Source: Candidatus Sericytochromatia bacterium
Lineage (GTDB): Bacteria > Actinomycetota > Actinomycetes > Mycobacteriales > Mycobacteriaceae
Length of the DNA: 32,000 nucleotides
Reading direction: 5' to 3'
Assembly (NCBI GenBank): GCA_050262635.1
Contig: JBLNEK010000005.1
Location: 35,135 to 67,134, forward strand
Shown piece after piece: positions 5,235-26,431 of the stretch (positions are counted from its first letter, which is position 1; the number at the start of each line of letters is the position of its first letter). The translations under genes and the position numbers were made by a program. The notes under the pieces were generated by a model. The model was not told where the DNA came from and did no database searches. It was given only the letters and a program-made list of their open reading frames with translations.

Positions 5235-5245
5235 GATGACTCTCC

Positions 5246-6049: not shown

Positions 6050-6081
6050 ACGGGACGGGGTATACCCGGTTCAGGCAGCCG

Positions 6082-8589: not shown

Positions 8590-9449
8590 CGGGTGGTCCG
8601 CCGCGGCAGGTGGCGTCGACGCGGCCACACCCCCGACCGTAGGAACAGCCGCCGGGGTGCCTGCGCGAGGCGGCTCCGCCAATGGCTGGCGTGCTCCGCG
8701 GGCATCGCGCTGACGATCCGTTTCGCGTGAGTGCCGGGCACAGCGCGCAGCACGCGCTCGACGACGACAGGATGCGCGATGCGGACGACTTCGGCGGCGA
8801 CGTTGGGTTCTCTGGTGGTCAGCACCTCCGCGGCTGATTCGGTGTCGAGCCGGCTCACCAGCGCGGCGAGCCCGCGCGCGTCGAGATAGTGGACGGCCGA
8901 CCGCGGGGTCGCCAGCTGAACGGCGTGGCCGCGCTCGGACGTCAGGTGCAGGTCGTTCCATGAGACAGCGTCTTTGGGGGCGCGCGCAGCCACCCGCTGC
9001 AGACCGAGGCGCCGCAGCACTCCGGCAAAGCCGACCTCGACGCCGACGAGTTCGAGCCGGTTGTCGGCGCTGCGGGCCAGCACCACGTCAGCGACCCGCG
9101 CGAGCCGGTGACCGACGACGTCAATGATCTGGGTGTCCAGCACGTCGCGCACGAGAAAGATCTCATCGTCGTCCAAAGCCGTTGATCTGAATCGGCTCAG
9201 CTCGCCGGGGGCCAGCGCGATGTCGGTGTGCCGGAACTTCTCGACCGCAGTCCACGGGATCAGGAGCTCAAGAGCGCCGTCGCGCACCAGGATTCGCTGA
9301 ACCAGATGCGGACCCGCCGGAGTGCCGAGCCGCGCGGTGAGGTCGCGCAGGGTTCCGACGACCTCGCCGTCGGACGCACGCACGTCACGACCGATCAGCC
9401 GGCTCAGGAACAGCACATCAGGAGCATGCCGGGTCGGCGCGCGGCGCAT
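8586..9449 (-). CDS. Cytoplasmic PRC-barrel x2 / MgtE N-terminal-domain-like protein
   Basis: Two PRC-barrel-like segments (LIGRDVRASDGEVVGTLRDL...LLIPWTAV and VRDVLDTQIIDVVGHRLARVADVVL) are followed by helical repeats resembling the MgtE_N domain (AALVSRLDTESAAEVLTTREPNVAAEVVRIAHPVVVERVLRAVP). No TM segment. Domain calls are by eye. Confidence 0.7.
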   Translation of the reverse strand: MRRAPTRHAPDVLFLSRLIGRDVRASDGEVVGTLRDLTARLGTPAGPHLVQRILVRDGALELLIPWTAVEKFRHTDIALAPGELSRFRSTALDDDEIFLVRDVLDTQIIDVVGHRLARVADVVLARSADNRLELVGVEVGFAGVLRRLGLQRVAARAPKDAVSWNDLHLTSERGHAVQLATPRSAVHYLDARGLAALVSRLDTESAAEVLTTREPNVAAEVVRIAHPVVVERVLRAVPGTHAKRIVSAMPAEHASHWRSRLAQAPRRLFLRSGVWPRRRHLPRRTTR

Positions 9450-9485
9450 CGCCGAAACCGCGTTCAGGAGTTCCTGTGTCGGCTC

Positions 9486-11282: not shown

Positions 11283-11451
11283 CAAGTTTGGTGGTGCGCG
11301 CGCCCCCCGGCGCCCCCCGGTCGCGCGCAACCCTCTAGCATCATGCACCGCGGTGGCAACCCTTATCAGCAAAATCGAATGTCCAACTCAGCAAACTATG
11401 CCGGTCACCTTCAGGCTCATTGGCGCACTGGCTCGTAATCCGCCACGGCAA

Positions 11452-12311
11452 TCAAGCAATGTTATGGGAAGCGTCTTCAGTTTCGTAGTCGAGTTCGAGG
11501 CGTTGTTCGGGCCGCTGCGCTTCAGCGGCCAGCGCCAGGCTGTAGTAGGACTTGTCCGCCCGGGTGAGCGGCGGTTGCGCGATGCTTCTGGGCCAGAGCC
11601 GTCGCACGCGAACGACACGCGAACGACGTCCGCCTGGATCGCGTAGACGATGACCGTTGCCTGCAGCGCCAACCAGGCGAGCAGTCCAAGGACGACACCG
11701 AACAATCCGGCGACCGCCTGAGCATGTCGCAGCTGGTGCGAGACAACGATTCCGGCGATGGTCAGCAAGATCTGCCAGCCGAGTGCGCTGATGGCCGCGC
11801 CGACCCACATGTCGCGGGTGGACACCTCGCCGGCCACGGCCACCCGGAACAGGATCAGAAAGAACGCGAACCCCAGAGCCGTTCCGACCGCCAGGCTCGC
11901 GAAGCGCGCGCCGAGCCCGCCGAGACCCAGCGATGCCGCGGTTCCGGCGGCGGTACTGGCGGCGCCTGTGACCACCACGATCAGGCTGAGAAGCAGGAGC
12001 AGCGAGATTGTGCGCAGGTAGCGCGGGAAAAAGCCGGGCCGGGCGACTTTGGGCACCGCCCACACCTTGTTCATCGTGTTCTGCATGGCATGGGCGAACC
12101 CGCGCCCTCCGATCAGCGCCCCGGCCACGCCGATGATCAACGATGGAAGCGTTCCACTGAATGATTCGACGCCGAGCTGATCGTGAATCTGGCCGCCGAC
12201 GATCGGAAATTCTGCAAAGGCCTGTGCGTGACCGTCATCTTGCTTCCGCTCGGTATCCCCGTCACCAAGCTCGGCGGCCGCCTCTTCACCCTTGCCGGCG
12301 ACCTGATGCAT
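11452..12311 (-). pseudogene. YihY/BrkB-family membrane protein, 5'-truncated and frameshifted
   Basis: Frame A (12311 to ~11616) carries the YihY core (MQNTMNKVWAVPKVARPGFFPRYLRT, multiple TMs). The conserved C-terminus VVRVRRLWPRSIAQPPLTRADKSYY... is in a different frame (ORF ending at 11452). The two frames are joined by an 11-bp tandem duplication. The first ~2 TM helices of the family are absent. Confidence 0.75.
11605..11626. repeat. Perfect 11-bp tandem duplication (cacgcgaacga x2) causing the yihY frameshift
   Basis: Plus strand 11605-11615 equals 11616-11626. Removing one copy gives the continuous reading ...YAIQADVVRVRRLWPRSIAQPPLT.... Confidence 0.9.
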
Positions 12312-12342
12312 ATCCCCTAAGGGGGCACCATGCGACTAATAC

Positions 12343-12645
12343 GTGGATTGCTGGGGCGTTCTGTTATGGATCGTTGCGGCGCTGCTCGGGCTCGTCGGGC
12401 TGGTGTTATGCGTGACGGTCATCCTGCTGCCGGTGGGGATTCCGATCGTGAAGATGGCTGGACGGTTCTTCACCAGCTCGGTGCAATTGATGCTTCCGCG
12501 GGCAGTGGCCCACTCGGTCGACGAGCTGACGAAGACGGCTCACAAGAAAGGGCGGAAAGTCGGGTCAGCCGCTTCGGGCACCGCCAGTTCGACCGCGAAG
12601 AAAGCCCGTAAGGCTGTTCGCAATCAGCGAAAGCTCCTGGCGTAG
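12343..12645 (+). CDS. Small hypothetical membrane protein with Lys/Arg-rich tail
   Basis: GTG start. High third-position GC in this frame only. Hydrophobic hairpin VLLWIVAALLGLVGLVLCVTVILLPVGIPIV followed by a basic tail KKGRKVGS...AKKARKAVRNQRK. No family recognised. Confidence 0.5.
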   Translation: MDCWGVLLWIVAALLGLVGLVLCVTVILLPVGIPIVKMAGRFFTSSVQLMLPRAVAHSVDELTKTAHKKGRKVGSAASGTASSTAKKARKAVRNQRKLLA

Positions 12646-12657
12646 AGAAACTTCCGG

Positions 12658-13940
12658 TCAAGCTCCGACGCGATCGGTCGCCCGATGGCTTCGTGCGTAC
12701 ACCTCGGCGAGGAATTGCTCGACGGCCACCGCCGCATGCGCCGCCCGCACCGAGCCGAGGATGTCGAAAGCGTGCTGAGTGAACGGAAGCTCCGCGTACA
12801 CCACTGGCTGCGTGCTGGCAGCACGTAACCGGGCGACGAACGCGCGGGCCTGCTCGACGGGTACCAACGAGTCATTGCGGCCGTGCAGCACGAAAAACGG
12901 TGGGGCGTCGGCGTTAACGTGGTGGACGGGTGACGCATCGACGTACGTCTGCAGGTCGGTCGAGTGAGGTCGTTTGACGACCCACCGTTCCAGAAGGTCG
13001 GGCATCGACGGGTGCATTGCATCCTCGACCCGGGTGAAGTCGTAGACGCCGTAGAAGGGGACAGCGGCCTGCACGGCGGTGTCGGCATCTTCGAAGCCCG
13101 GCTGGAACCGAGGGTCGTTGGGCGTCAGGGCCGCCAGCGACGACAGGTGCCCACCGGCCGACCCACCTTGATGGCAATAAAATTGGGGTCGCCGCCGTAT
13201 TCGACTATGTGTGTTTTGGCCCAGGTGAGCGCCCGCTTGATGTCGATGATGTGGTCGGGCCAGGTGTTGCGTGGGCTGTGCCGGTAGTTGATGGCGACGC
13301 AGATCCAGCCGAGCTCTGCGAGGTGGCTCATCAGCGGATGTGCTTGGCCGCGTTTGTTTCCCGTCGTCCATGCACCGCCGGGAATCTGGAAAAGCACGGG
13401 CGCCTTACCGTTTGGGTCGAAGTCCGGGCGTCGCCAGATGTCGAGATGGTTGGCCCGGCCGTAGTCGCCGTAGCTGATGTCGGCGCCATGGGCGTAGTCG
13501 CGGTAGATGCGCAGCATCCGCAGTGGGCCCGGCGTCTTCGCCAGGCCGCCGCCGGCCGGCTTGCGCCACAGGCCTGTCGAGTCTGCGCGACGACCGTTGC
13601 CGAGGCCGTCGTCCAGCGCCGCGGTCAGCGTGGCCTTCGACTGGTGGCCCGCGCGACTGAAGTTCAGCAACCCCACCGCCGACACGGCGGCCACGATCCA
13701 CGAGATGGCCCGCACGGGCCGGGTCAATCGCCGTGCGGTTAGTGCGAGCCCGCCGATCTGGCTCGCCAGCGTCTGCAACGGCAACTCGCTCACTACCAGC
13801 CCGAACACCCACGAGTAGACCGACGGGTATCCGTAGCGCGCCAAGGGCCGGTACCCGTTGAGTGTGGACGTGGCGGTCACAGCGGCGACGACCAGCGCCC
13901 CGACCTGTCGAAGGACGACGAGAGGTGAGGCGTTCCGCAC
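12658..13940 (-). pseudogene. Alpha/beta-hydrolase carboxylesterase (LipQ-like), interrupted by a 1-nt frameshift
   Basis: The upstream frame (13940-13169) has N-terminal TM helices, the oxyanion motif FQIPGGAWTTG and ...EYGGDPNFIAI. The downstream frame (13168-12658) starts at GGSAGGHLSSLAAL (GxSxG nucleophile) and contains the ...LHGRNDSLVP... and ...FTQHAFD... catalytic regions. The junction atc-aa-ggt-ggg-tcg lacks one base. Confidence 0.8.
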
Positions 13941-14410
13941 TCGCCCAGCCTACGAGGAATCATGCAGAAAATTGCACCGAGTGATTAGGGATGCCGGGCC
14001 AACATTTTTCGGCCGCCGCCGAACTCACCCGGTACCACGCCAGCGAACTCGATTGGATGACGGCCGGTGCGCTTTATGCCGGTGGATAGTATGCGCCGGG
14101 CGATCAATACGATGGGCGGGAGACTTTGCTGCGATAAAGCCGATAATGATCCTCGTCATTCGATTGACGGCCTTCTAGGGCTATGCCGTCGAGCATCACC
14201 GGCTACGTCGTCTGGTGCAAAACGCGGTGATCAGTCGTTCTACTGCCCTTGCGAGAACAAGTAGCTGCTAGTTGTGCGAGCTTTGCTGGACTTTGCCGTC
14301 GCCACGGTACTCGTGGGCTGGGTCACGGCCGGTATCGTTTGTGATCTAGCAAATATTGACATACGCTACCGCAGGGGACGGTAGCAAATTCTTTCGAGGG
14401 GACCGGGGCA

Positions 14411-16204
14411 GTGGGAAAGCATGCGTCGAAAAACCTGGCGAACGATTCAGGAAGCCGCCGGTTTCGGTCACCCGACGGGCCCTCGTGTGCGACGCGACCA
14501 GTGGTGCCGCCTCGAGTTCGAGACCGCCGGTGGCGCCGGGGCGTCCACTTGAGGGTTGCCGCGTCGGTAGCCGTGGTTGCTGCTGCTTTTCTGACTTTCG
14601 GCGCAACGTTGACTTCGGCAGTCGCCTCGGCGGCCACGTGTGCTGACGCGGATTGCGTTTACATCATGAAGGGAACCAACAGCGCCTTCAATCAGATTCC
14701 GGACTCCGCCTATCCACAATTCGCCCACGACTACTACAACGCGGTGAACCCTCCAGCGCCGATACCAGTCAGTGCGCCATACCCCTATTACGTCGTTCCC
14801 TATCCGGCAACGTTCCGCCCGTTTACTCCGCCGGGCTACATTTTCTCGCCGACATTCGACCAGTCGGTAGCAACCGGCGTGTCAAATCTGGAGAATGCAC
14901 GCCCCCTGGACTCCCCGCGATCTGGGGATGTCATTTGGGGTTACTCCCAAGGTGCGACGGTGGTTACGCAATACAAGCGCGACTTCAATTCGTCTGATCC
15001 CAGTGTCAACGCGCCGACCTTCGTCCTAGTCGCGAACCCGAACCGGCCGAACGGCGGAATCCTCGAGCGGGGTGTGGCGTTGGGTACCATCCCCATCCTG
15101 GGCCTGACGTTCAGCGGTGCCACCCCGACAACCACGAGCGGCCCGTCGGCCGGCTCGCTGACCACGTATGACATTGCCCGGCAATACGACGGCATCGCCG
15201 ACGCCCCCGAGAATCCACTCAACCCGGTCGCCGATCTCAACGCGATGATGGGGTTCTACTACCTGCACGGCCAGTACCCCAACGCCGACCTGACAACTGC
15301 AATCGATCAGGGTCGGTACGGCGACACCGAGTACTTCCTCATTCCGACTTACCCGCTGCCATTGCTGATGCCGCTGGACTCCATACCGGTCATCGGATTT
15401 CCGCTCGCCGACACGTTGGATCCGCCGCTGCGGGTCATCGTCGAATCTGCGTATGACCGCAGCACGTCCCCTGGTGAACCGACTCCGTTCAACCCCCTGT
15501 ATTTCCCGAACCCGGCGACATTCGGCACCAACCTCCTCGTTGCGATTCCGACCGGACTCGACAACGGAATCAGCGACTTCACAGGAACGCGCCCGTTCGG
15601 AACCATTCGGCCGGGGCCGTATGGCGTCGGCGGGCCGCCGACCCCCCAGCTGAGCACGCCGACGCAAGGCACTAGCCCTACCATTCCGGTGCTGTTCGGC
15701 TCCCCGAGCGGCGGTATGTTCGCGCTCCTGAATCCCGCAAACCTCTCACAAAGCCTCACGCCACCCGACGGTAGCCAGCCGAGCATCTCGTCCTTCTCGA
15801 ACACCACCAATGAACTCACCAACCTGGGACCGGACGGTCAGAACCCACCGGCAGGAAGTCAGCTCCAGGCCAATTCACCAAACGGCACTGTTTTTGGTCA
15901 GCGGCTGGCACCCGTAGCACCCCCGAATGAATCGCGCGAGCCAGAAGTCGCAGACACTGCCGGGCAGTCGAACGACGATCAGTCTGCGGCAACCAAGCCA
16001 CGACCGAGGCTCAACGTGCTGCGCTCCTCGCCGGGCGCGCCCGTCCCGCAGCCGGGAACAAGCTCGCCGAATGGCTCGCGATCCGCCAACAATCCGATTG
16101 GATCCGTCACCACGGGCATATCGAATTCCCTTGCGGGTGCCGCGGATTCCATCAGGTCGGCGCTTGGAGGTACGTCGAAGAACCCCAAAGGCGGTGCGAA
16201 CTAG
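14411..16204 (+). CDS. Membrane-anchored/secreted PE-PPE-domain serine hydrolase (Chp-like), with Ser/Pro/Asn/Gln-rich tail
   Basis: GTG start after GAGGGG. Hydrophobic N-region VAASVAVVAAAFLTFGATLTSAVASAA, nucleophile motif IWGYSQGA, and ANPNRPNGGILERG, ARQYDGIADAP, YYLHGQY. Clearly paralogous to 9486-11282. The ~190-aa C-terminal region is low-complexity. Confidence 0.85.
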   Translation: MGKHASKNLANDSGSRRFRSPDGPSCATRPVVPPRVRDRRWRRGVHLRVAASVAVVAAAFLTFGATLTSAVASAATCADADCVYIMKGTNSAFNQIPDSAYPQFAHDYYNAVNPPAPIPVSAPYPYYVVPYPATFRPFTPPGYIFSPTFDQSVATGVSNLENARPLDSPRSGDVIWGYSQGATVVTQYKRDFNSSDPSVNAPTFVLVANPNRPNGGILERGVALGTIPILGLTFSGATPTTTSGPSAGSLTTYDIARQYDGIADAPENPLNPVADLNAMMGFYYLHGQYPNADLTTAIDQGRYGDTEYFLIPTYPLPLLMPLDSIPVIGFPLADTLDPPLRVIVESAYDRSTSPGEPTPFNPLYFPNPATFGTNLLVAIPTGLDNGISDFTGTRPFGTIRPGPYGVGGPPTPQLSTPTQGTSPTIPVLFGSPSGGMFALLNPANLSQSLTPPDGSQPSISSFSNTTNELTNLGPDGQNPPAGSQLQANSPNGTVFGQRLAPVAPPNESREPEVADTAGQSNDDQSAATKPRPRLNVLRSSPGAPVPQPGTSSPNGSRSANNPIGSVTTGISNSLAGAADSIRSALGGTSKNPKGGAN

Positions 16205-16385
16205 GCTCACTGCCGCGGTGTAGTCGACGTCCGGGAGTAAATGATCACCGCCGCACACGCGATGACGGAGCTGAACGGCCCTCTGAAACGGATCCGCGTT
16301 CCCTGGGCCACACTGGCCATCAACACTTCCCCTATGTCCTGTTTGTTGGCGCAGGCCGCGCCCGGCGGATAGTTGAGACCGGAGG

Positions 16386-17093
16386 ATGGCTGTATTGCGC
16401 TGGACCTCGATCGCAAGAACGCTGGCTTTGGTGTTGTGCTCCGCCGCTCTTGTCGCGCCGACCGCATGCTCAGCCTCCTCCATGCGGAATCGGCACATCG
16501 ACATCAGCAAGATCTTTCTGGTCAAGTCCACATTCGGGCCCGACTACAAGGTTGCCACCACCGGTCCAACAGCCATCGATCCGCGATTGCTCATTCCCCC
16601 GACGCTCTCCTCCGATATGACGTTCGAGCCCGCGGATTGTGCGAAGTATGCCTCGGGTCAGACGTTGCCGAGGGACTTGACCGGCACGATGGCCACCGTG
16701 TCCGCCGAGGGGGACAGGAACCGCTTCGTTGCTGCCGCGCTGCAGACGTCACAGCAGGTTCCATACGAGCCGATCAGCGAAAATTGCAGGCATATCGCTT
16801 TCACCGGTCGAAGCGTAAAGGGCGTCATCGACCTCGTTGACGCGCCGCGCATTGACGACGCAGAAACTCTGGCTACCCACAGGGTGCTTCAGGCCACCCT
16901 CGGTGGCCAAGACCGCTCAAGCGATCTGTACAACTACACCGCATATCTCGGGAACTGCGTCGTACTGGTCGCCGCGACGTCGGTGGCGGCACCAGACCAG
17001 CCGCCCGCTGCCGTGGACGTCGAAATGGCGCGCCGGCTCCTGACTGACTCGGTGGCCTCCGTCCGTGGCGCGAAGATACGGGCGACCGGCTGA
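16386..17093 (+). CDS. Putative lipoprotein
   Basis: Signal peptide with a lipobox-like LVAPTAC (Cys28). The mature part has paired Cys (EPADCAKY, SENCRH, LGNCVV). The start could instead be TTG three codons downstream, which has better SD spacing. The family could not be pinned down by eye. Confidence 0.7.
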   Translation: MAVLRWTSIARTLALVLCSAALVAPTACSASSMRNRHIDISKIFLVKSTFGPDYKVATTGPTAIDPRLLIPPTLSSDMTFEPADCAKYASGQTLPRDLTGTMATVSAEGDRNRFVAAALQTSQQVPYEPISENCRHIAFTGRSVKGVIDLVDAPRIDDAETLATHRVLQATLGGQDRSSDLYNYTAYLGNCVVLVAATSVAAPDQPPAAVDVEMARRLLTDSVASVRGAKIRATG

Positions 17094-17185
17094 CTGCCTT
17101 ATCGAACTGCCATCGCACACATCGGGCGTGGTCAATCGCAGCAGCGCGGTGCACGCGTGGCGTGCGAGACAGATTGCGATACCAG

Positions 17186-17725
17186 TTACTTGGCGACCAT
17201 GCGCCAAGGCTGGCATCCGTGCGTGGCGAAGGCGGCATCCGTTGGCAGTATTCGCACCTGCGTCGGTCCAGCATCCGAGCCGCCGGCTTCGATCGTCGTC
17301 TCGGGTGTCTCCTGGGGCGCCGACAATCTCGCCCACGCGCAATGCGTCAACCCTGGCGCCGGGCCGTCCGACTCCCACACACCCGGATCGACCTGATCGC
17401 CGCCCACCCGATACATCCCGTCGGCCGGCATCATCTTTTCCGACACGTACCGGCTCGTCGTGGTCGTCGGCGCGGGCTGGGTCGGTGAGGGCGAGGACGG
17501 CGGCGTCGCCCCGGGGTTTCCACGAGTTCCCTGGAACACCAGCGCGCCCACGGCCAACAGCGCCGTGAGGCCCAGGCTTGCACCGGTGAGGATCTTGAAC
17601 AGTTTCGTGCTGCCGTGCTTGTGCGAGGCAGGGATAGCGGTATACCACTCCGAGCCGTCCCAGTACAGCTTCCTGGGTTTACCCTCCGGGTCGGGGTACC
17701 AGCCAGGCGGCAGCTGTGTGGGCAT
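17186..17725 (-). CDS. DUF2510-domain membrane protein
   Basis: N-terminal PPGWYPDPEGKPRKLYWDGSEWYT (DUF2510 signature), a single TM LGLTALLAVGALVF, a Pro/Thr-rich linker, and a C-terminal extracytoplasmic domain. Confidence 0.8.
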   Translation of the reverse strand: MPTQLPPGWYPDPEGKPRKLYWDGSEWYTAIPASHKHGSTKLFKILTGASLGLTALLAVGALVFQGTRGNPGATPPSSPSPTQPAPTTTTSRYVSEKMMPADGMYRVGGDQVDPGVWESDGPAPGLTHCAWARLSAPQETPETTIEAGGSDAGPTQVRILPTDAAFATHGCQPWRMVAK

Positions 17726-17895
17726 GTCAGCTCATTGTTTACCAGCAGACCCGGTTGCCAGTCACCCGCCGAGAGGTCCTCGACTTGTACAGCGCGCGCT
17801 CTGCGAGTGGGTACGGAATAAGCGCTCCAATGCCGCCGGTTTCCGCTTTGCGACTTTGCTAGGTTACGGAGAAAGCGATCGAGAGGGATACCGTT

Positions 17896-20526
17896 GTGCT
17901 CTCGAAGCTGCTGCGCCTTGGCGAGGGTCGTTTGGTCAAGCGGCTCAAGGCGGTGGCGAACAGTGTCAGCAGTCTGGCCGAGGACGTCGCACAACTGACC
18001 GACGCAGAATTGCGTGCGAAGACCGACGAGTTTCGCATGCGTCTTCTTGCCGGCAGGTCGCTCGACGACCTCGTGCCGGAGGCGTTCGCGGTGGCCCGAG
18101 AGGCGGCGTGGCGGGTGCTGGACCAGCGGCCGTACGACGTGCAGGTGATGGGCGGCGCGGCTCTGCATTTCGGCAACATCGCCGAGATGGGCACCGGCGA
18201 GGGCAAGACGTTGGCCTGCGTGCTGCCGGCGTATCTGAACGCGTTGAGCGGCAAAGGAGTTCACATCGTCACCGTCAACGACTATCTGGCCAGGCGCGAC
18301 GCGGAGTGGATGGGTCGCGTGCATCGCTTCCTTGGTCTGAGCGTCGGGGTGATCCTTGCGGAGATGAAACCCGACGAGCGACGGGTGGCCTACAACGCAG
18401 ACATCACCTACGGAACGAACACCGAACTGGGTTTCGACTATTTGCGCGACAACATGGCCCACCGGCTCGAGGACTTGGTGCAGCGGGGGCACCACTTCGC
18501 GATCGTCGACGAGGTGGACTCGATTCTGATCGACGAGGCGCGCACGCCGTTGATCATCTCCGGGCAGGCCGAGGAGGCCTCCGACTGGTATGTCGAGTTC
18601 GCTCGGCTGGCCGAAATGCTGGAGAACGACGTGCATTACGAGGTCGACATCCGCAAGCGCACGGTCGGGGTGGACGAAGCCGGGGTGGAACTCGTCGAGG
18701 ACCAGTTGGGCATCGACAGCCTCTATGAGGTGTCGAACTCGCCGCTGGTGAGTTTTCTCAACAACGCAGTCAAGGCCAAGGAGTTGTTCGACTGCGACAA
18801 GGACTACATCGTGCGCGACGGTGAGGTCCTCATCGTCGACGAGTACACCGGCCGGGTTCTGGTGGGGCGGCGCTACAACGAGGGGCTGCATCAGGCGATC
18901 GAGGCCAAGGAGGGCGTGGAGGTCAAGCCGGAGAACCAGACGCTGGCGACGATCACGCTGCAGAACTATTTCCGGCTCTACGACAAGCTCGCCGGGATGA
19001 CGGGCACCGCGCAGACCGAGGCCGCGGAGTTCCGGGACATCTACCGCTTGGGCGTGGTGGCGATCCCGCCGAACAAGCCGACGATCCGCAATGACGAGCC
19101 CGACATCGTCTACAAGACAGAGAAGGCCAAGTTCGACGCGGTGGTCGAGGAGGTGGCCAACCGTTATGCGACGGCCCAGCCAGTGCTGATCGGGACCACC
19201 AGCGTGGGCAAGTCGGAGTACCTTTCGGGTGAGTTCGTCAAGCGCGACATTCCGCATTCGGTCTTGAATGCCAAGCACCTGGAGGCGGAGGCGGCGATCG
19301 TTGCCGAGGCGGGTCGGCGAGGCGCAGTCACGGTGGCCACCGACATGGCCGGCAGGGGAACTGACATTGTGCTGGGCGGCAACATCGACTTCTTGACCGA
19401 CAAGCATTTGCGGACAAGGGGTTTGGACCCGATGCAGACCCCCGACGAGTATGAGGCAGCGTGGCGTGACGAGCGCTCTGCGGTAAAGGACGAGGCTGGC
19501 GTGGAGGCCAAAGCGGTTGTGGCGCTGGGCGGTCTGTACGTGCTGAGTACCGAGCGGCACGAGTCGCGGCGTATCGACAACCAGTTAAGGGGCCGGTCGG
19601 GGCGGCAGGGAGATCCGGGGGAGACGCGGTTCTATCTGTCGCTTGGGGATGAGCTGATGCGCCGCTACAACGGCGAGGCGGTGCAGAAGATCCTGACGAA
19701 GCTGAAGGTACCCGATGATCTGCCGATCGAGTCGAAGATCGTCAGCCGCGAAATCGCCACGGCGCAAACGCAAGTTGAGCAGGTCAACTTCGAGGTGCGC
19801 AAACATGTGCTCAAGTATGACGAGGTGATGAACCAACAGCGCAAGGTGATCTATGCGGCGCGCCAGCGGATTCTGCGGGGCGACGATCTCGGCAAGCAGG
19901 TGCACACGATGCTCGTCGACGTGATTACCGGCTACGTCGATGCAGCTACTGCATCGCCCGATGTGACGGAATGGGACGTCGACTCTTTGTGGACGGCGTT
20001 GAATGCGCTATATCCGGTTGGGGTGAAAGATCATCGGTGGAAGCGGCGACGAGCGAGGACGGCTGCGGTGATGCGCAAGGTGTTGACGCACGCCTTGATC
20101 AAGGATGCCGAGCGGGCATTCGCTAGGCGGGAGAAGGAGTTCGAGCAGCTGGCCGGCGCGGGGGCGATGCGGCAGCTGGAACGCGAGGTGCTGCTGGATG
20201 TGATCGACCGCAAGTGGCGTGAGCATTTGTATGCGATGGACTACCTGAAGGAAGGCATTGGGCTACGCGCGTTGGCGCAGCGCGACCCATTGGTCGAATT
20301 CCAGCGTGAGGGCTACGACATGTATGTCGCCATGATCGAGGCCATCAAGGAGGAGAGTCTTGTCGCGCTGTTCCAGGCCGCTCTGAAGAAAGACCCCGCA
20401 CCCGAGCCGGTTGGTGTGGTGGCGCCGCTGCGGCTGGCTGAATTCACTAGGGGCGCAACACAAGACGCGGACCCTTCGGCGCTCGGCGGCGAGGGAGAAG
20501 GACGGCATGCAGCAAGCCGTGGATGA
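17896..20526 (+). CDS. secA: SecA preprotein translocase ATPase, SecA1-type architecture, divergent
   Basis: GTG start 7 nt after [25 protein letters not shown]..., Walker [68 protein letters not shown], and [23 protein letters not shown]. 876 aa. Confidence 0.95.
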
Positions 20527-20527
20527 A
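20441..20527 (+). repeat. Copy 1 of a diverged direct repeat (secA 3' end including its stop codon)
   Basis: aattcactaggggcgcaacacaagacgcggacccttcggcgctcggcggcgagggagaaggacggcatgcagcaagccgtggatgaa. Roughly four-fifths identical by eye to 21298-21382. Confidence 0.75.
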
Positions 20528-20536
20528 CTTCTAGGG

Positions 20537-20950
20537 TCAGACGCCAACGACGGTCAGAAGATGTTCGATGCCTCGGAAGTCGTCGATGTTGCGGGTGTAG
20601 AGGGGCAGGTTTTTGGCTAGGGCGGTGGAGGCGATCAGCAGATCGACCGCCCGGGGGCCGCGCGCCTTGCGTCCTGTTGCGACGATTGCCGCATACATGC
20701 GTCCGTAGGCTCGGGCAGAGTCACCATCGAAGGGCAAGGGGTCGAAGGTGGCCTCGGCGCGCTGCAGCCTATCTTGGCGCCGCGCTCGCTCGGCGGTGTC
20801 GCGCGTGGCGTGAGGGCCCGCTGCGAGTTCGGCCATGGTGAGGGCGCTGATCGCCAGTTCGCCCGGGAGCTGCCCCATGTCAATGTGGTCCAGGTCGATC
20901 AGGACCGAGGTGTCGATGAGTCCTTGCGACCGACTCGGAACATCAGCCAT
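20537..20950 (-). CDS. vapC: PIN-domain ribonuclease toxin VapC
   Basis: MADVPSRSQGLIDTSVLIDL... (PIN N-terminal acidic motif), ...DLLIASTALAKNLPLYTRNIDDF. The ATG at 20950 overlaps the antitoxin stop (ATGGCTGA). Confidence 0.85.
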   Translation of the reverse strand: MADVPSRSQGLIDTSVLIDLDHIDMGQLPGELAISALTMAELAAGPHATRDTAERARRQDRLQRAEATFDPLPFDGDSARAYGRMYAAIVATGRKARGPRAVDLLIASTALAKNLPLYTRNIDDFRGIEHLLTVVGV

Positions 20951-21197
20951 GAGGCGTGATGCCTTGGCTCGCAACCCGATCGAGGTCAGCTCGCAGCCGG
21001 TCGAAATCTATGCGGGGAGCTCCTTTGAACGCCGCTTGCACGGCCTTGGCATTGACGAACCGCTGCCGACGCAGTGGCGAAAGCTCGCCGACAGGAACAC
21101 CATTCCTGGTCACAACAAAGGATTCACCCTGGTCGAGCTGGCGCATGATTTCGCCGCTGTTATTGCGTAGCTCACGTTGGGTGATCTCTCTGGTCAC
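20943..21197 (-). CDS. vapB: Phd/YefM-type antitoxin partnered with VapC
   Basis: MTREITQRELRNNSGEIMRQLDQGESFVVTRNGVPVGEL is the typical Phd/YefM N-terminal fold sequence. GTG start at 21197. Directly upstream of the PIN gene and overlapping it. Confidence 0.85.
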   Translation of the reverse strand: MTREITQRELRNNSGEIMRQLDQGESFVVTRNGVPVGELSPLRRQRFVNAKAVQAAFKGAPRIDFDRLRADLDRVASQGITPHG

Positions 21198-21222
21198 ATG
21201 GTGATTGTAGCACGCGTGCTAC
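21198..21222 (-). promoter_or_regulatory. Putative leaderless promoter (-10 TACAAT) overlapped by a perfect 16-bp palindrome operator
   Basis: Minus strand: GTAGCACGCGTGCTACAATcaccatGTG. The palindrome GTAGCACG/CGTGCTAC is at 21207-21222, TACAAT at 21204-21209, and 6 nt separate the -10 from the GTG start codon. Confidence 0.55.
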
Positions 21223-21297
21223 GGCGGTGGGACTTGGCATGCGGGCCGCAGCCGGTCGGCGCTCCCGACTGGCATGCGATCGAAGCGGGGAGGTGTG

Positions 21298-21382
21298 AAG
21301 TTCACAGTGGCGCGGCGCAAGACGCGGACCTTTCGGCGGTCGGCGGTGGGGGGACGGACGGCATATGGCGAGCCCTGATGAA
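21298..21382 (+). repeat. Copy 2 of the diverged secA 3'-end repeat
   Basis: aagttcacagtggcgcggcgcaagacgcggacctttcggcggtcggcggtggggggacggacggcatatggcgagccctgatgaa. In the matching frame it reads ...EVHSGAAQDADLSAVGGGGTDG..., against the SecA tail ...[22 protein letters not shown].... Confidence 0.75.
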
Positions 21383-21418
21383 ATCGATACAGCGCCGCCG
21401 GCTCGATGCCTGACGTCG

Positions 21419-21805
21419 CTACGCGGGCATTGAGAACGGTGGTTGCAGATCTTCGAACATCGGGAAGTGGCGGACGTTGAGAGTCGCCAAGTGAAGTCCT
21501 TTGACATCTGCGGTAGCTGCGACGAGATAGTCACCCAGTCCGATCCCGGAATGGATTTGCCGATATTGCCGCATCAGCTCGCCGGCCCGTCGAGCGATGA
21601 TCTCGGTAGCGGGTTCCACGCGAAACGATCCCAGCAACCCCCACACCTCGCGGCGCTCGGCTGATCGCATCCCGCCGACGAGCTCGGCGATCGAGACCAC
21701 GCTGATCGCCAGGGGCACCTGCTTCCGGGTGCTGAGAAGCCAGTCGCGGGCTGCGCCGATACCGCGCAGATGAGCGATCAGCACATCCGAATCGACAAGG
21801 ATCAC
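21419..21805 (-). CDS. vapC: PIN-domain ribonuclease toxin VapC (second module)
   Basis: VILVDSDVLIAHLRG... and ...DYLVAATADVKGLHLATLNVRHFPMF. I prefer GTG 21805, which overlaps the antitoxin stop (GTGA). GTG 21814 (ORF track) is the alternative. Confidence 0.85.
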   Translation of the reverse strand: MILVDSDVLIAHLRGIGAARDWLLSTRKQVPLAISVVSIAELVGGMRSAERREVWGLLGSFRVEPATEIIARRAGELMRQYRQIHSGIGLGDYLVAATADVKGLHLATLNVRHFPMFEDLQPPFSMPA

Positions 21806-22053
21806 GAGCGCCACATTCGGCCCAGGTGCTCCTCACGGGCACCCTCTCCGCGCACCGGAACATCGATGTCGTGCATCGCACCGAACGATTCGTCGATCGC
21901 CCGCAGGTCGGAAACGAGGCTGGCGTCCGCATCGGTCAGCACACGGTCCAACAGCTGGCGGATCAGCTCAGCACGGGAGACGCCCTGTTGTGCAGCCAGG
22001 CGGTCGAGGGCCGCTGTCTGTTCCTCGTCGAGGTAGATGTTGGTGCGGCGCAT
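21802..22053 (-). CDS. vapB: Ribbon-helix-helix (CopG-like) antitoxin VapB
   Basis: MRRTNIYLDEEQTAALDRLAAQQGVSRAELIRQLLDRVL is the classic RHH pattern. I prefer ATG 22053 over 22065 because of the -10 spacing. Confidence 0.8.
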   Translation of the reverse strand: MRRTNIYLDEEQTAALDRLAAQQGVSRAELIRQLLDRVLTDADASLVSDLRAIDESFGAMHDIDVPVRGEGAREEHLGRMWRS

Positions 22054-22071
22054 ACACCACATCATACACCA
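22051..22071 (-). promoter_or_regulatory. Putative leaderless promoter (-10 TATGAT) within a 9-bp direct repeat pair (candidate RHH operator)
   Basis: Plus-strand CATACACCA occurs at 22051-22059 and 22063-22071 (12-bp period). Minus strand reads TGGTGTATGATGTGGTGTATGcgc. TATGAT (22061-22066) lies 7 nt from the ATG at 22053. Confidence 0.5.
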
Positions 22072-22197
22072 GCTGGTGGCCCAGAAAGGGACCTTGCGCT
22101 ACGCCAGCGAACGCAGAGTCGCGCGTAACCATTTGCTCACGCCATCGGGGGCTATTCCTTAGTCATCGATGTTTGCTGGATGAGTACAGCAACCTAC

Positions 22198-23271
22198 TCA
22201 CGCCGTCGGCCGCCAGAAACCCTGAAAACCCTGGTTCAAGTTCGTCGTCCGGATCGGCGACAACTGCACAGGATCGCCGGCCTCGATCATCAGCCCGTTG
22301 CCGACGACCATCGCGACGTGACCGTCCCACACCGCAAGATCCCCCGGCAGCAGCGCGTTCGGCGACACCGCCACACCGACGTCTTGTTCTTGGGCCAGCC
22401 GCGGAAGGTCAAGTCCCGCTTCGTGATACGCCCACTGCGTCAGTCCGCTGCAGTCCAAGCCCACACCGGGTGTAGTGCCGCCCCAGTCGTAGGGCACGCC
22501 GAGCTGTGTCAGCGCGCGGCGCACCGCGTCGGCGGCCACCTTGTTGGGAGCGTTCACTGTGGTGCCGTCGGGCAGACGGACCGTGACCCCGCCACCGAGC
22601 GCGTCGGAGTCCAGCATCGGCGCCTCAGCGAGATCTCCCAGGCTCGCCGGCACCGCCGATGTCAGACCTGACATCAGCGCGGCAGGCGTCGCCGCAACAC
22701 TGCCTGCGCCCGGCAGCATCGACGACGACATCCCCGCCGGTGAGGTGACCGGTGGTTGCATGGCGGGCGTTGCGGCAGCGCCGGACTCCGCGACCGCCGC
22801 CGCGTGCCCGTCGAGTTCGGCTTCCAACTCTGCGACCACGCCCGCCGCGTCGGCCAGTGCCCGCCGCGTCGCCTCGGCCAATGCCGGGGCGCTTCTGGGC
22901 AGATCCTCTTCGAGCGTCTGGGCGGTGGCTTCGAAGTCGTCGACGATGCGCTGCAGCTGGGCCTTCGTGCGCGCGACTGCATCGGATGCGGCGTCGACAC
23001 GGCTCGCCATCCCCGACGCATGCGTGGCCAAGTCGGCCGCGCCGGTGAGCGCTGCCGAGATCGTGCGTCCCGCAGCGTTTGCCGCCATCCCCGACCACTG
23101 CGCACCGATTTGTCCGAGTCCGGCGGTGCCGTCGGCCGTCAACTCGGCGACGGCTTGGCTCGCGGCGCGCAGCACCTGGGCGGGGTCGTCATCCGTGAAG
23201 ACACCGTCGCCCACAGCCGCTTGCAACTCGTGCAGCGGCGCGGCGAGCGCGGTTACCAGGGCGCTGGCCAA
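22198..23271 (-). CDS. NlpC/P60 (C40) peptidoglycan peptidase with long N-terminal helical, WXG-like domain and no signal peptide
   Basis: C-terminal C40 domain: ALTQLGVPYDWGGTTPGVGLDCSGLTQWAYHEAG (catalytic Cys) and LAVWDGHVAMVVG (His). The N-terminal ~160 aa are Ala-rich helical with W59-S-G61 (IGAQWSGMAANAA). An Ala/Pro/Ser linker follows. TTG start 3 nt after the upstream stop. Confidence 0.85.
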   Translation of the reverse strand: MASALVTALAAPLHELQAAVGDGVFTDDDPAQVLRAASQAVAELTADGTAGLGQIGAQWSGMAANAAGRTISAALTGAADLATHASGMASRVDAASDAVARTKAQLQRIVDDFEATAQTLEEDLPRSAPALAEATRRALADAAGVVAELEAELDGHAAAVAESGAAATPAMQPPVTSPAGMSSSMLPGAGSVAATPAALMSGLTSAVPASLGDLAEAPMLDSDALGGGVTVRLPDGTTVNAPNKVAADAVRRALTQLGVPYDWGGTTPGVGLDCSGLTQWAYHEAGLDLPRLAQEQDVGVAVSPNALLPGDLAVWDGHVAMVVGNGLMIEAGDPVQLSPIRTTNLNQGFQGFWRPTA

Positions 23272-23274
23272 TGA

Positions 23275-23577
23275 CTAGGCCCCGACGTGCGCGATGTGCG
23301 TCTGAGAGCACCGTTCCGTGTCGTCGAAGTCGGCGGCCGCCGCCGTGGTCGCGCTGCCGGCGGCCATGACGTCGTCGCCAATCTGGTTAAGCCTCTTCGA
23401 CAGCGCATCGGCTGCGTAGGCGACTGTCTGGGCGAACCGGGAACCGATGGGTCCGAACGCGGCGGTGACGGTCGCGGCGGCCACCGAGCGCAACGGTGCG
23501 ACAGCTGCGTGGAGGTCGGCGCCGAGATCGGAGGTGGCGGTGCCGTAGTCGCGGATCGCGTCGGTGTCAGCGTGCAT
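23275..23577 (-). CDS. Small helical protein, EspC-like / type VII secretion target family-like
   Basis: 100 aa: MHADTDAIRDYGTATSDLGADLHAAVAPL...FGPIGSRFAQTVAYAADALSKRLNQIGDDVMAAGSATTAAAADFDDTE. The length and the pattern of conserved Ala, Gly and acidic residues resemble the ESX secretion-associated EspC family (by eye). Confidence 0.6.
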   Translation of the reverse strand: MHADTDAIRDYGTATSDLGADLHAAVAPLRSVAAATVTAAFGPIGSRFAQTVAYAADALSKRLNQIGDDVMAAGSATTAAAADFDDTERCSQTHIAHVGA

Positions 23578-23616
23578 GACACGTTAGACCGGCGGCGCCG
23601 GCTGGCGGTTCCGTCG

Positions 23617-24264
23617 TCAATCCAGAAGGGAGCCGACGCCCTCGGCGACCAGCAAGACCCCGAGCAGGCCGAGAACGGCGGTCATGACGGTCCGGTAGTG
23701 GTCGAGAAGCCACTGCTTGATGCGATCGAGTGTCGCGGTCGCGTGCTGGCCGCCTGACATTAGGAACGCCACCACCGCGATGAACGGCGCTGTGGCGAGC
23801 ACCGTGAACACCGCCAAGGTTGCCAGCAGAGCGGGCGCCGACACGTGAATTGACGCGGCTTGCGAACCCACCGACAGCAGCACCACCGCGTTGATCGGGT
23901 TCAACCACACGACCGTCAAGGACAGCGCGAACACCGCGCCCGCCCCCATGCCGGCGATCTTGTCCAACACCGCCGGCGGGGTCTCCAGGTTCCTGTTGAC
24001 CGAGCTTCCAATGGCCAAGGCGCCCAGCAGGACTCCGAGGGCGATGAGCAACCATCCGGTGACTGCACTGGGACTTGTGGCGTGTGTGTTATCGGCCCAG
24101 GATCGCAGCATCGTGGCGCCCAGGAGCGGCAGCGCGAACACCGACACGGTGACCGAACCGAGGAACACGAGCGCGTTGACCCGGGCGCGTGCGGACAGCA
24201 GGACCAGGATCATCTCGATCAGGCCTGTGGGGCTAAGGGCGATCGCGATCGCGGCCGGCAACAT
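23617..24264 (-). CDS. GAP-family (Sap-like, PF11139-type) polytopic membrane protein
   Basis: 215 aa with ~6 TM segments. The N-terminal AIAIALSPTGLIEMILVLLSARARVNALVFLGS matches the characteristic ALSPxxIIxxILxLxxxRxxxN start of this family as I recall it. Confidence 0.6.
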   Translation of the reverse strand: MLPAAIAIALSPTGLIEMILVLLSARARVNALVFLGSVTVSVFALPLLGATMLRSWADNTHATSPSAVTGWLLIALGVLLGALAIGSSVNRNLETPPAVLDKIAGMGAGAVFALSLTVVWLNPINAVVLLSVGSQAASIHVSAPALLATLAVFTVLATAPFIAVVAFLMSGGQHATATLDRIKQWLLDHYRTVMTAVLGLLGVLLVAEGVGSLLD

Positions 24265-24289
24265 CGTCGCCCACAGCTGGGCGGCAGAG

Positions 24290-25108
24290 TCACCGATGGG
24301 TGTCAGTCCTTGAAAGTCGTTGCCGGCGAATCACTATCGCGGCGACGGCTGCCACGTAGATCACCATGCAAGCGATCACGGTCGCGATCACTTGGGGATA
24401 CTTGCTGTCCCAGCCGCCGGCCGACGTGTGCTTGATGAGGATGCCCGTATAGGCCCACAGCAGCACGAGGCCGTAGGCGATGTCGCGGTTGCGCAGAACC
24501 GTAGCGGTTCCAATGGCCGCCGCGACGAGCACCATGATGACCGCCCAGGCCGAGTCGGCCAGGCCGAAGCCGTCCCAGTTGACGCTGACCAGAAACACCG
24601 TGACGTTCGCGACCGTCGCCACGGTGGTCCAGCCGAAATAGACGCTGAACGGCACCCCGATGAACAGTTTCTCCCGCGGAGTCAGCTCGGCAGCCGCCAG
24701 CGTCATCGCGATGACGGCCAGGCACGCCAGAATCACGATGATCAGCACCACCGAAAGAGCGATCACGTCGTAGTGCCAGGCGAACACCCAGGCCGTGTTC
24801 GCCAGTGACGAGATCGAGAAGTACAGGCCGACCTTGTTCAGCAGACCCGACCGATCGCCGGAGGCTTGGCGGGCCCGGAACAGCCCCAGCTGATACAGCA
24901 CGTGCAGGCCGAGCAGCAGGTAGATGAGGCTCCAGATGGAGAAGGTGATCCCGGCCGGCGCGAACAGGTTCGGATAGGCGTTCGACACGTCACCGGTGCG
25001 TCTTCCGTTGATAGGCAGCGTGTTCGCCAGGGCATTGACCGTCACCATCAACAGGTACGTGACTGCGGCCAATGCGGCGATAAGGCGCCTCGCCGTCGTC
25101 GCTTCCAT
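24290..25108 (-). CDS. TspO/MBR-related tryptophan-rich membrane protein (long form)
   Basis: 272 aa, multi-TM. NTLPINGRRTGDVSNAYPNLFAPAGITFSIWSLIYLLLG and the Trp-rich segments (NTAWVFAWHYD, YFGWTTVATVAN) resemble the TspO-like family. Assignment by eye. Confidence 0.5.
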   Translation of the reverse strand: MEATTARRLIAALAAVTYLLMVTVNALANTLPINGRRTGDVSNAYPNLFAPAGITFSIWSLIYLLLGLHVLYQLGLFRARQASGDRSGLLNKVGLYFSISSLANTAWVFAWHYDVIALSVVLIIVILACLAVIAMTLAAAELTPREKLFIGVPFSVYFGWTTVATVANVTVFLVSVNWDGFGLADSAWAVIMVLVAAAIGTATVLRNRDIAYGLVLLWAYTGILIKHTSAGGWDSKYPQVIATVIACMVIYVAAVAAIVIRRQRLSRTDTHR

Positions 25109-25181
25109 TCAGTCCTCCCTGTTCGAGTGCCGAGCACTGCCGTCGTGCGCGCTTCCCATGCGGTCCGAGGAGCGCGAAAAT

Positions 25182-25781
25182 ATGAACATGAAGATAGCGG
25201 CCGCTGCTGCGGCGCTGCTGCTATGCACGTTGACAGCGTGCGGCAGTGCCGACAAGAGCGCGAACAGCACACCGGGTTCCACGACAGATGCCACGACGGC
25301 AACCACGACGACCTCGCCGCCACCGGCCCCGGCGCCGTTCGCGTTGAGCAGTCCCGCCTTCGCCGACAACACACCGATTCCGGCCGAATTCTCCTGCAAC
25401 GGCCGCAACGTCCCTCCGCCGCTGCGTTGGGAGAATGTGCCGGCGGGCGCGGAGTCGCTGGCGCTGGTTCTCGATGACCCCGACGCGGTGGGTGGCCTCT
25501 ACATTCACTGGGTCGTGACCGGGATCCCGCGCGACGTTGCCGAGATCGTGGACGGTGCACTGCCTCCGGGCGCTCGGGTCGGGCTCAATTCGGGTGGCAA
25601 GGCGGCATACCTGGGTCCATGCCCGCCGACTGGCACGGGTGTGCATCACTACCGATTCCAGCTGTACGCGATCGGTAAGCCGTTGACGGTGACGGACACC
25701 ATGGCGGCCGCCGAGGCGACCCGCGCCATCGCTGACGCGGCCATCGCCGACGTCCGCGTCGTCGGGTTGTTCAGCGGCTGA
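25182..25781 (+). CDS. YbhB/YbcL-family PEBP (Raf-kinase-inhibitor-like) lipoprotein
   Basis: ATG 25182 lies 10 nt after GAGGAG. Signal peptide plus lipobox [13 protein letters not shown] core LVLDDPDA...[10 protein letters not shown]...[19 protein letters not shown]. Confidence 0.85.
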
Positions 25782-25807
25782 GGACGGCTTGGCTCAGGTG
25801 GTCGGCC

Positions 25808-26431
25808 ATGGACGTTCGGGTGGTCGACCATCCGTTGGCCGCCGTGCGGCTGACCGCGCTGCGTGACGAGCGCACCGACAACGCGGCATTCCGCGCAGCG
25901 CTGCGTGACCTGACGCTGATGCTCGTGTACGAGGCGACGCGCGACGCGCCGACCGAGACGGTGCCCGTGCGCACGCCGCTGGCCGACACCACCGGGTGCC
26001 GCCTGGCCAAGCCGCCACTGCTGGTGCCGGTGCTGCGCGCCGGGCTGGGGATGGTCGACCAGGCGCATGCGCTGATCCCGGAGGCGCAGGTTGGATTCGT
26101 CGGGGTCGCGCGTGACGAGCAAACGCACTTGCCCACACCGTATTTGGATTCCTTGCCCGACGACCTCGACGGCCAGCCGGTGATGGTGCTGGACCCGATG
26201 TTGGCCACTGGCGGCTCGATGGCACACACCGTAGAGCTGCTGAAGACACGTGGGGCAACAGACATCACGGCGGTGTGCGTGGTGGTGGCGCCGGAGGGCC
26301 TCGCGAAGATGGAGCAGCTGGCGCCGGAGATGCGGGTGTTCACTGCGACAGTCGACGAGCGGCTGAACGAAATCGCCTACATTGTCCCAGGTTTGGGCGA
26401 TGCCGGCGACCGTCAGTTCGGGCCGCGCTGA
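25808..26431 (+). CDS. upp: Uracil phosphoribosyltransferase
   Basis: [23 protein letters not shown]..., PRPP-binding loop [13 protein letters not shown], and C-terminal [15 protein letters not shown]. Confidence 0.95.

Follow-up and report, generated by a model that had tools for sequence, protein, structure and literature searches.

The 32,000-nucleotide stretch of DNA that we analyzed (the window) holds, at 17896..20526 on the forward strand, a gene for a SecA ATPase that departs from the housekeeping SecA1 of Mycobacteriaceae and does not belong to SecA2. We think it likely, at a probability of about 0.7, that this variant SecA is an accessory paralogue of SecA1 descent, a third type beside SecA1 and SecA2, carried in a two-gene cassette by uncultured soil Mycobacteriaceae. 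The sequence-only reading that preceded this work had proposed either an extra SecA paralogue or a relocated secA1. We favor the paralogue over an ordinary relocation because the tree of the gene conflicts with that of its host, deeply invariant sites changed in a burst that gave way to purifying selection, linkage to hpf is absent, the cassette sits at several loci, and its presence at a given site is polymorphic. The literature that we searched recognizes exactly two SecA paralogues in mycobacteria (PMC10470612, PMC6333443) and gave no relevant "SecA3" for this group. Accessory SecA paralogues are an already known kind of protein; the variant is a new form, so far found only in uncultured soil mycobacteria.

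The gene is a single long open reading frame with a GTG start that encodes 876 amino acids (NCBI protein MGE5693826.1). Its GC content at third codon positions, 0.82, is what genuine genes show in a sequence of 65% GC such as this one, and it matches that of host genes. An intact SecA with readable motor motifs had been proposed from the letters, and profile scores, domain content, and a motif check all bear this out. The protein passes both NCBIfam SecA equivalog models, NF009538 (1169 bits; cut-off, 814) and TIGR00963 (1124 bits; cut-off, 800), and Pfam finds in order SecA_DEAD (NBD1), PP_bind (PPXD), P-loop_SecA (NBD2), and SecA_SW (scaffold/wing). The Walker A Lys104, the Walker B DEVD box, and the motif VI arginines are all retained. 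Its top solved structure is M. tuberculosis SecA1 (1NKT), and the 1392 bits of that match settle the fold; SecA2 (4UAQ) reaches only 441 bits.

We considered membership of SecA2 and rejected it, in agreement with the earlier view that the protein is not of the shortened SecA2 type. The variant scores 625 bits with the mycobacterial SecA2 model TIGR04221, below its cut-off of 725; its match to the wing/scaffold profile covers positions 1-199 of 200, so that the wing domain is full-length; and it has 876 amino acids. It also falls below the cut-off of every Firmicutes SecA2 model tried (TIGR03714, the aSec SecA2/SecY2 model, at 727 against 930; TIGR04397; NF012136). The label "SecA1-type" thus holds by profile score, but not by C-terminal tail or gene neighborhood, and a housekeeping SecA1 orthologue would be recognized by its clade position, its hpf linkage, and its C-terminal tail, in all of which the variant differs.

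Close relatives of the variant are few. When a collection of 5.8 billion proteins was searched, just two protein clusters were close to the window SecA (P0001, 91%, and P0002, 86%), and all further matches were mycobacterial SecA1 proteins on a flat plateau of 71-75% identity, irrespective of genus; two more clade members (P0245 and P0246) were found in a 90% cluster. The clade comprises five full-length copies and one truncated remnant, all from uncultured Mycobacteriaceae. The window contig comes from an NCBI metagenome-assembled genome (MAG), and the remaining five clade contigs were assembled from soil metagenomes, in four ENA assemblies (ERZ25039495, ERZ25039551, ERZ25039554, and ERZ25039558); among them are contig_9595 of ERZ25039554 (1.41 Mb) and contig_11307 of ERZ25039495 (1.29 Mb). 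The matches listed for GTDB species representatives were all canonical SecA1 proteins, the best being 74% identical, and a scan of JGI metagenome contigs with two clade-specific DNA signatures returned no family member.

To place the clade, we aligned the three cleanly translated variant copies with 80 canonical SecA1 proteins spanning Mycobacterium (including M. leprae), Mycolicibacterium, and Mycolicibacter, with Nocardia, Tsukamurella, and Nonomuraea as outgroups. Canonical SecA1 proteins are 78.5-99.5% identical to one another (median, 85.8%), whereas the variants are only 69-74% identical to them, a lower value than that of Nocardia SecA (75-79%). The variants are nonetheless nearer to mycobacterial SecA1 than to the SecA of Nocardia (69%), Tsukamurella (64%), or Nonomuraea (63%). 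The impression, gained by eye from the window alone, that the protein is more diverged than expected for a SecA1 orthologue was therefore sound. In the SecA phylogeny that the same reading had called for (neighbor-joining, 100 bootstraps), the variants and the canonical SecA1 proteins are each monophyletic with support of 100, and the two are sister groups to the exclusion of Nocardia with support of 91. The variants thus lie outside the canonical clade, as sister to all 80 sampled SecA1 proteins, and the stem of their clade has about twice the length. When character states were compared, no derived states were common to the variants and any canonical subclade. Gene conversion from a canonical copy in the same genome would leave tracts of raised nucleotide similarity, and none were found in the variant.

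The host is placed quite differently. The adenosine deaminase (Add) encoded in the window is 95% identical to that of a relative known from a 1.29-Mb contig (L083), 91-94% identical across the host clade of metagenomic contigs, and 85-89% identical to the Add of named species (Mycolicibacterium thermoresistibile, M. houstonense, M. mengxianglii, Mycobacterium kyorinense, and Mycobacterium sp. WMMD1722), which are themselves 82-95% identical to one another. Rooted on Nonomuraea, whose Add is equidistant from the window (70.0%) and from the named species (69.9%), the Add tree nests the host clade among the named species, and it fell outside them in 0 of 200 bootstraps. Mycobacterium sp. WMMD1722 illustrates the discrepancy: compared with the window, it shows 85% identity in Add but no more than 71% between its canonical SecA1 (L045) and the window SecA. 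Judged by its sequences, the host is an ordinary crown-group mycobacterium, and since these data place it inside the crown, the SecA gene tree and the species tree are in conflict. The sequence-only reading had allowed that a sole SecA1-type gene branching with orthologous SecA1 at species-tree distance would simply be the housekeeping gene; what we find is a variant outside the canonical clade in a host that nests among the named species.

The 67-kb source contig was deposited in a MAG labeled "Candidatus Sericytochromatia bacterium" and also carries the genes for MGE5693817.1 (SatS), MGE5693825.1, and MGE5693826.1. Its SatS and PE-PPE genes, its M. tuberculosis-like synteny, and an Add 85-95% identical to mycobacterial ones indicate a mis-binned mycobacterial contig. 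Tetranucleotide signatures gave no tie between a further locus (L005, in MFD09495.bin.1.76) and the host-clade contigs, this signal being uninformative.

Remodeling of the motor and the selection on it

Every motif difference was checked against the 80 canonical SecA1 proteins and all five variant copies. All five variants depart from canonical SecA1 at 39 sites where the latter is at least 99% invariant, nearly always by the same residue. These clade-fixed changes include K99G (directly before Walker A), T107A, F178L, H462L, and N483D (motif V). In the window, the Walker A region G99-T-G-E-G-K104-T-L-A107 is encoded at 18190..18216 (+), where K99G and T107A flank a catalytic Lys104 that is kept, and the codon for D483 lies at 19342..19344 (+), a position at which every canonical SecA1 protein and each of the three outgroups has Asn. 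The altered form of AEMKTGEGKT, F178L, and N483D, all noted earlier from the window, are therefore real features of the family, to which T107A can be added. Of the other differences noted at that time, N176T is present in four of the five copies, and VLSTERHES (G551S) is present in the window but private to it. The Walker A-region variant can also be seen on JGI contigs (L094-L114) from unrelated organisms, most of them of lower GC content, in SecA genes whose products are 39-54% identical to the window protein, and a Gly before Walker A is thus tolerated elsewhere.

The changes at invariant sites are spread unequally over the domains (Fisher p = 1.6e-4). They affect 4.3% of such sites in NBD1 and 1.6% in the PPXD, against 11.2% in NBD2 and 16.7% in the C-domain (scaffold/wing/IRA1), such that the PPXD and NBD1 are almost unchanged and the remodeling falls mainly on NBD2 and the scaffold/wing. 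Its most conspicuous element is the wing loop at residues 708-735, which carries a net charge of +8 in every variant and in the remnant, as against -7 (range, -9 to -5) in canonical SecA1. Within this loop lies the Arg-rich segment that had been pointed out in the window (residues 712-728; 20029..20079, +), and it is conserved in every copy and in the remnant. We considered a frameshift as the origin of this segment and rejected it on account of stop codons in both other frames.

The missing C-terminal tail, likewise noticed at the outset, was confirmed by alignment with canonical SecA1. The canonical tail of about 107 amino acids includes an LTYSGPxEDG motif and a basic SRRERREAAR end (about +9 over the last 30 residues), and it is common to the SecA1 of Mycobacteriaceae, Nocardia, and Tsukamurella. 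The variants end 36-42 residues past the scaffold, and their ends do not align with one another; in the window, this short, unconserved end (residues 836-876; 20401..20523, +) stands in place of the tail.

To calibrate the extent of change, we counted changes at sites that are invariant in all canonical SecA1 proteins and two outgroups. Nocardia differs at 1 such site and any single canonical sequence at 4 or fewer, Tsukamurella at 20, and Nonomuraea, which belongs to a different order, at 42; the variants differ at 28-39. Within the variant clade, the ratio of nonsynonymous to synonymous substitution rates (dN/dS, omega) is 0.14-0.16, compared with 0.10-0.21 for pairs of canonical SecA1, and the clade is under purifying selection at an omega of about 0.15. 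A burst of change at constrained sites on the stem, followed by normal purifying selection, is the usual signature of a paralogue that has shifted in function and then stabilized.

These comparisons also bear on the possibility of a xenologue, in which the variant would be the normal SecA of some unsampled sister lineage of the Mycobacteriaceae that was recently acquired and is redundant and unspecialized. Its place as the sister branch to all canonical mycobacterial SecA1, the lack of derived states in common with any canonical subclade, the lack of conversion tracts, and its location in a hypervariable island next to VapBC modules all fit such an origin. However, the housekeeping SecA of a sister genus keeps the deep invariants: at the same 375 deep-invariant sites, Nocardia has 1 change and the variant 28-30. 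The reversal of wing charge together with the loss of a tail that Nocardia and Tsukamurella keep argues for a changed function, the third-position GC content matches host genes, and the GTDB matches listed held no close relative. We consider a xenologue unlikely.

The two-gene cassette and its variable presence

In 78 of the 80 canonical loci, hpf (Rv3241c) lies directly upstream of secA1, with a median gap of 115 nucleotides; it lies beside variant secA at none of the variant loci. In M. tuberculosis, secA1 is some 70 genes away from satS, in the direction of pmmB. All five variant copies have upstream of them a divergently transcribed gene of 179-181 amino acids that we found beside no canonical secA1. 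In the window, this partner gene (17186..17725, reverse strand; 179 amino acids; NCBI neighbor protein MGE5693825.1) encodes a protein that begins with a DUF2510 motif and ends in an Rv1352/Rv1906c domain containing two Cys; between them come a single predicted transmembrane helix and a linker rich in Pro and Thr. The partner gene is intact at all five loci and evolves at an omega of 0.13-0.28. The 170-bp intergenic region between the divergent genes (17726..17895) contains a Shine-Dalgarno-like GAGAGGGA at 17881-17888, 7 nucleotides before the GTG, and no sigma-70 consensus promoter was found in it. The partner protein has distant phage and prophage relatives, namely, gene 2 of prophiGD03-1 (30% identity over 95% of the protein) and gene 46 of Sparky and of Farewell, and it matches PHROG 17706, annotated as a moron membrane protein.

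Homology between loci starts and stops at the borders of this gene pair (approximately 17186-20530), and the cassette occupies at least three chromosomal contexts. In the window, and also in L088 and probably in L001, it lies between satS and upp; L088 is a 1.41-Mb chromosomal contig with M. tuberculosis-like synteny. In L002 it adjoins dnaE2 and homologues of Rv3362c-Rv3369, and L089 provides a third context. The cassette is thus seen on five independent contigs, of which the four metagenomic ones each come from a different ENA assembly. Its alleles also recombine, as three observations indicate. When 17186-21240 of the window is compared with L001, nucleotide identity is 93-97% in the partner gene and the 5' half of secA, falls to 80-88% in the 3' half, and rises again to 97-98% in the vapC flank; the remnant at 1-628 of L083 holds the L001-type 3' allele; and in L089 the SecA groups with that of the window, while the partner gene groups with that of L002.

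Variant secA contains three frame changes in the first 150 codons of the L088 copy (9530-12160) and one in the L089 copy (9934-12556). Since other L088 genes (satS, glgX, and PE-PPE) are split likewise, these are probably errors of long-read assembly. Taken at face value, they would support a reading in which the variant is no working export motor, being instead a decaying duplicate, an artifact of assembly or binning, or a protein with a non-secretory role in defense or as part of a toxin-antitoxin system. The Sericytochromatia label of the MAG, the VapC genes that adjoin variant secA, and the resemblance of the partner's C-domain to phage moron membrane proteins point the same way. Set against this are the splitting of other genes on the same long-read contigs, the recovery of the cassette on five independent contigs including the 1.41-Mb chromosomal one, an omega of about 0.15, and a search for defense systems that gave no PADLOC match. 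We regard a nonfunctional or non-secretory protein as very improbable.

The satS-upp interval is itself polymorphic for the variant. The window is collinear with M. tuberculosis Rv3313c-Rv3305c (add, an inserted glgX, satS, upp, pmmB, and an amidohydrolase gene), and variant secA was correctly placed at the outset between the Rv3311 homologue and upp, that is, between satS (6082..7344, reverse strand), which anchors the interval on the left, and the Rv3309c orthologue upp (25808..26431, forward strand), which anchors it on the right. The comparison with related genomes that had been suggested shows that at this site the variant may be intact, truncated, or absent. In L083, the relative with an Add 95% identical to that of the window, only residues 629-836 of the variant SecA are left, and the omega of this remnant against the closest allele, 0.43, suggests relaxed constraint. 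No SecA is present in L092, where the whole interval is visible, or in L093 between its esterase gene and its NlpC/P60 gene, whose counterparts in the window stand on either side of the cassette, or in L091 within 10 kb of satS.

In another explanation, the variant is the only housekeeping SecA1 of its host clade, having left the hpf locus, evolved fast for a time, and become a gene that now moves among sites. No second SecA1-type gene was observed in views of 10 kb around indexed genes, its omega is the same as for housekeeping SecA1, no catalytic motif is damaged, and samples without the variant at satS-upp have it on other contigs. On the other hand, an essential motor in a crown-group host would then have altered 28-39 positions at which two actinobacterial orders show no variation, and it would have lost both a conserved C-terminal tail and a near-universal linkage to hpf. 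The syntenic copy in L083 is moreover reduced to its last third, and L001, which resembles the window locus, probably belongs to a different genome from L083. A sole, relocated SecA1 therefore seems to us quite unlikely.

Several points nevertheless weigh against an accessory paralogue. No canonical secA1 or secA2 was retrieved from variant-carrying genomes within the same 10-kb views, and it is accordingly something that we infer that the host has, alongside the variant, a canonical secA1 next to hpf to carry out the essential functions. An omega as low as that of housekeeping SecA1 would also be expected of a sole essential SecA. The basal position of the clade comes from neighbor-joining, and long-branch attraction could produce it. 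Two assemblies that are variant-free at satS-upp, ERZ25039558 and ERZ25039551, hold the cassette on other contigs (L002 and L089), which fits one copy per genome at a variable site and would equally fit a sole, mobile SecA. The link between the partner and SecA is one of co-location, and their trees are not fully congruent. Finally, ATPase activity, use of SecYEG, and client specificity are all deduced from sequence.

Proposed mechanism and known SecA systems

An accessory paralogue with these features would probably be an active ATPase, given that all catalytic residues are retained and selection is purifying. As no secY2 lies nearby, it may use the housekeeping SecYEG channel, by analogy with mycobacterial SecA2. 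The conserved clamp and NBD1, set beside the rewritten NBD2, wing, and C-terminus, suggest that regulation, localization, or partner binding has changed, rather than chemistry, and the altered regulatory and wing surfaces might restrict the variant to a subset of clients or retarget it to one. The co-inherited type II membrane protein, by virtue of its location, is the most obvious candidate for a client or docking partner. More speculatively, binding to lipid, the ribosome, or an acidic chaperone may have passed from the basic C-terminal tail, now lost, to the newly basic patch of the wing. A fuller version of this idea, which we put forward only tentatively and consider doubtful as it stands, is that the variant represents a third SecA class, an old offshoot of SecA1 in a mobile two-gene module, in which a motor with reversed wing charge, no C-terminal tail, and altered regulation through NBD2 is dedicated to or docked by the DUF2510/Rv1352 protein. 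Accessory SecA systems could then be acquired, relocated, and lost in the manner of other island cargo.

SecA1 of the Mycobacteriaceae (Rv3240c; 1NKT/1NL3) is the nearest relative of the variant in the tree, and the two have in common the four-domain order, the GTG start, the N-terminus, a helical wing, the Walker A Lys, the DEVD box, and the motif VI arginines. They differ in that the variant is 69-74% identical, carries 39 clade-fixed changes, has a wing charge of +8 and not -7, has lost the tail of about 107 amino acids, is not linked to hpf, and varies in presence among close relatives.

Mycobacterial SecA2 (Rv1821; TIGR04221; 4UAQ) is conceptually similar in being a second SecA that works alongside SecA1 without a dedicated SecY2. 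A K129R mutant of SecA2 has served to examine dominant-negative jamming of SecY. Swanson et al. are reported to have described in 2015 that SecA2, like the variant, differs from SecA1 in the wing domain and C-terminus. The variant has 876 amino acids against the 778 residues of the 4UAQ chain, however, and its wing is full-length and reversed in charge, not deleted; in contrast to SecA2, which is found throughout the genus as a conserved gene, the variant is also rare and mobile. Mycobacterial SecA2 has been reported to use the housekeeping SecYEG, and how it gains specificity while sharing that channel is an open question (PMC6333443).

The Firmicutes aSec SecA2/SecY2 and single-SecY SecA2 systems provide a further parallel, in that a paralogous SecA is linked to a candidate dedicated substrate, as in the variant cassette. 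The variant is distinguished from these systems by scores below all of their cut-offs, by a window without secY2, asp, or glycosyltransferase genes, and by its independent derivation from actinobacterial SecA1.

Because it keeps the clamp and NBD1 and rewrites NBD2, the wing, and the C-terminus, the variant offers a comparison for the SecA surfaces that set client choice and regulation, and its pairing with one small membrane protein offers a simple motor-client or motor-partner hypothesis. On the practical side, the variant shows that in some soil mycobacteria confusion can arise for secA-based markers (secA1 typing) and for MAG quality checks that assume single-copy genes.

Other genes of the satS-upp interval

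The collinear region begins with add (170-1483). Its satS product (MGE5693817.1) scores 718 bits with NF050072 (cut-off, 700), and satS encodes a chaperone of the SecA2 export pathway (PMC6333443). In the window, variant secA lies about 10 kb from satS, a proximity that is not conserved (L002 and L089) and that we ascribe to the role of the satS-upp interval as a hypervariable hot spot.

In M. tuberculosis, only sapM lies between satS and upp (PMC6333443). The corresponding interval of the window (7363..25800) has no sapM-like phosphatase gene, nor has any other part of the window, and holds about 18 kb of accessory genes. These encode an Nramp-like transporter, two PE-PPE-domain proteins (one of 597 amino acids, an accessory envelope gene near the cassette at 14411..16204, +), a BrkB-like protein, a LipQ-like esterase, a DUF5642 lipoprotein (16386..17093, +) whose N-terminus resembles a lipoprotein signal (LVAPTAC), the variant SecA, two VapC toxins, an NlpC/P60 protein, SfLAP, and a PEBP protein. 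The first VapC (PIN) gene (20537..20974, reverse strand) is convergent with secA, with 10 nucleotides between the two stop codons, and the second lies at 21419..21814 (reverse strand). Gene content of the interval differs in every relative examined; across L083, L088, L091, L092, and L093 it includes guanylate cyclases, FMO, a LIP lipase, a SOUL protein, a second glgX, and VapBC pairs. The window contains no tRNA genes, and the open reading frames scanned gave no integrase or transposase match. A plasmid or phage origin was considered and set aside, as searches gave only mislabeled chromosomes or generic 45% matches.

Upstream of the interval, an open reading frame at 3879-6158 (reverse strand; 759 amino acids) probably represents two genes, one for a TauE/SafE-like permease (5246-6049, 267 amino acids, as called in L084) and, downstream of it, one for a metallo-beta-lactamase-fold/rhodanese protein. 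In L083, glgX and satS adjoin; by comparison, the window has this pair as an insertion between them.

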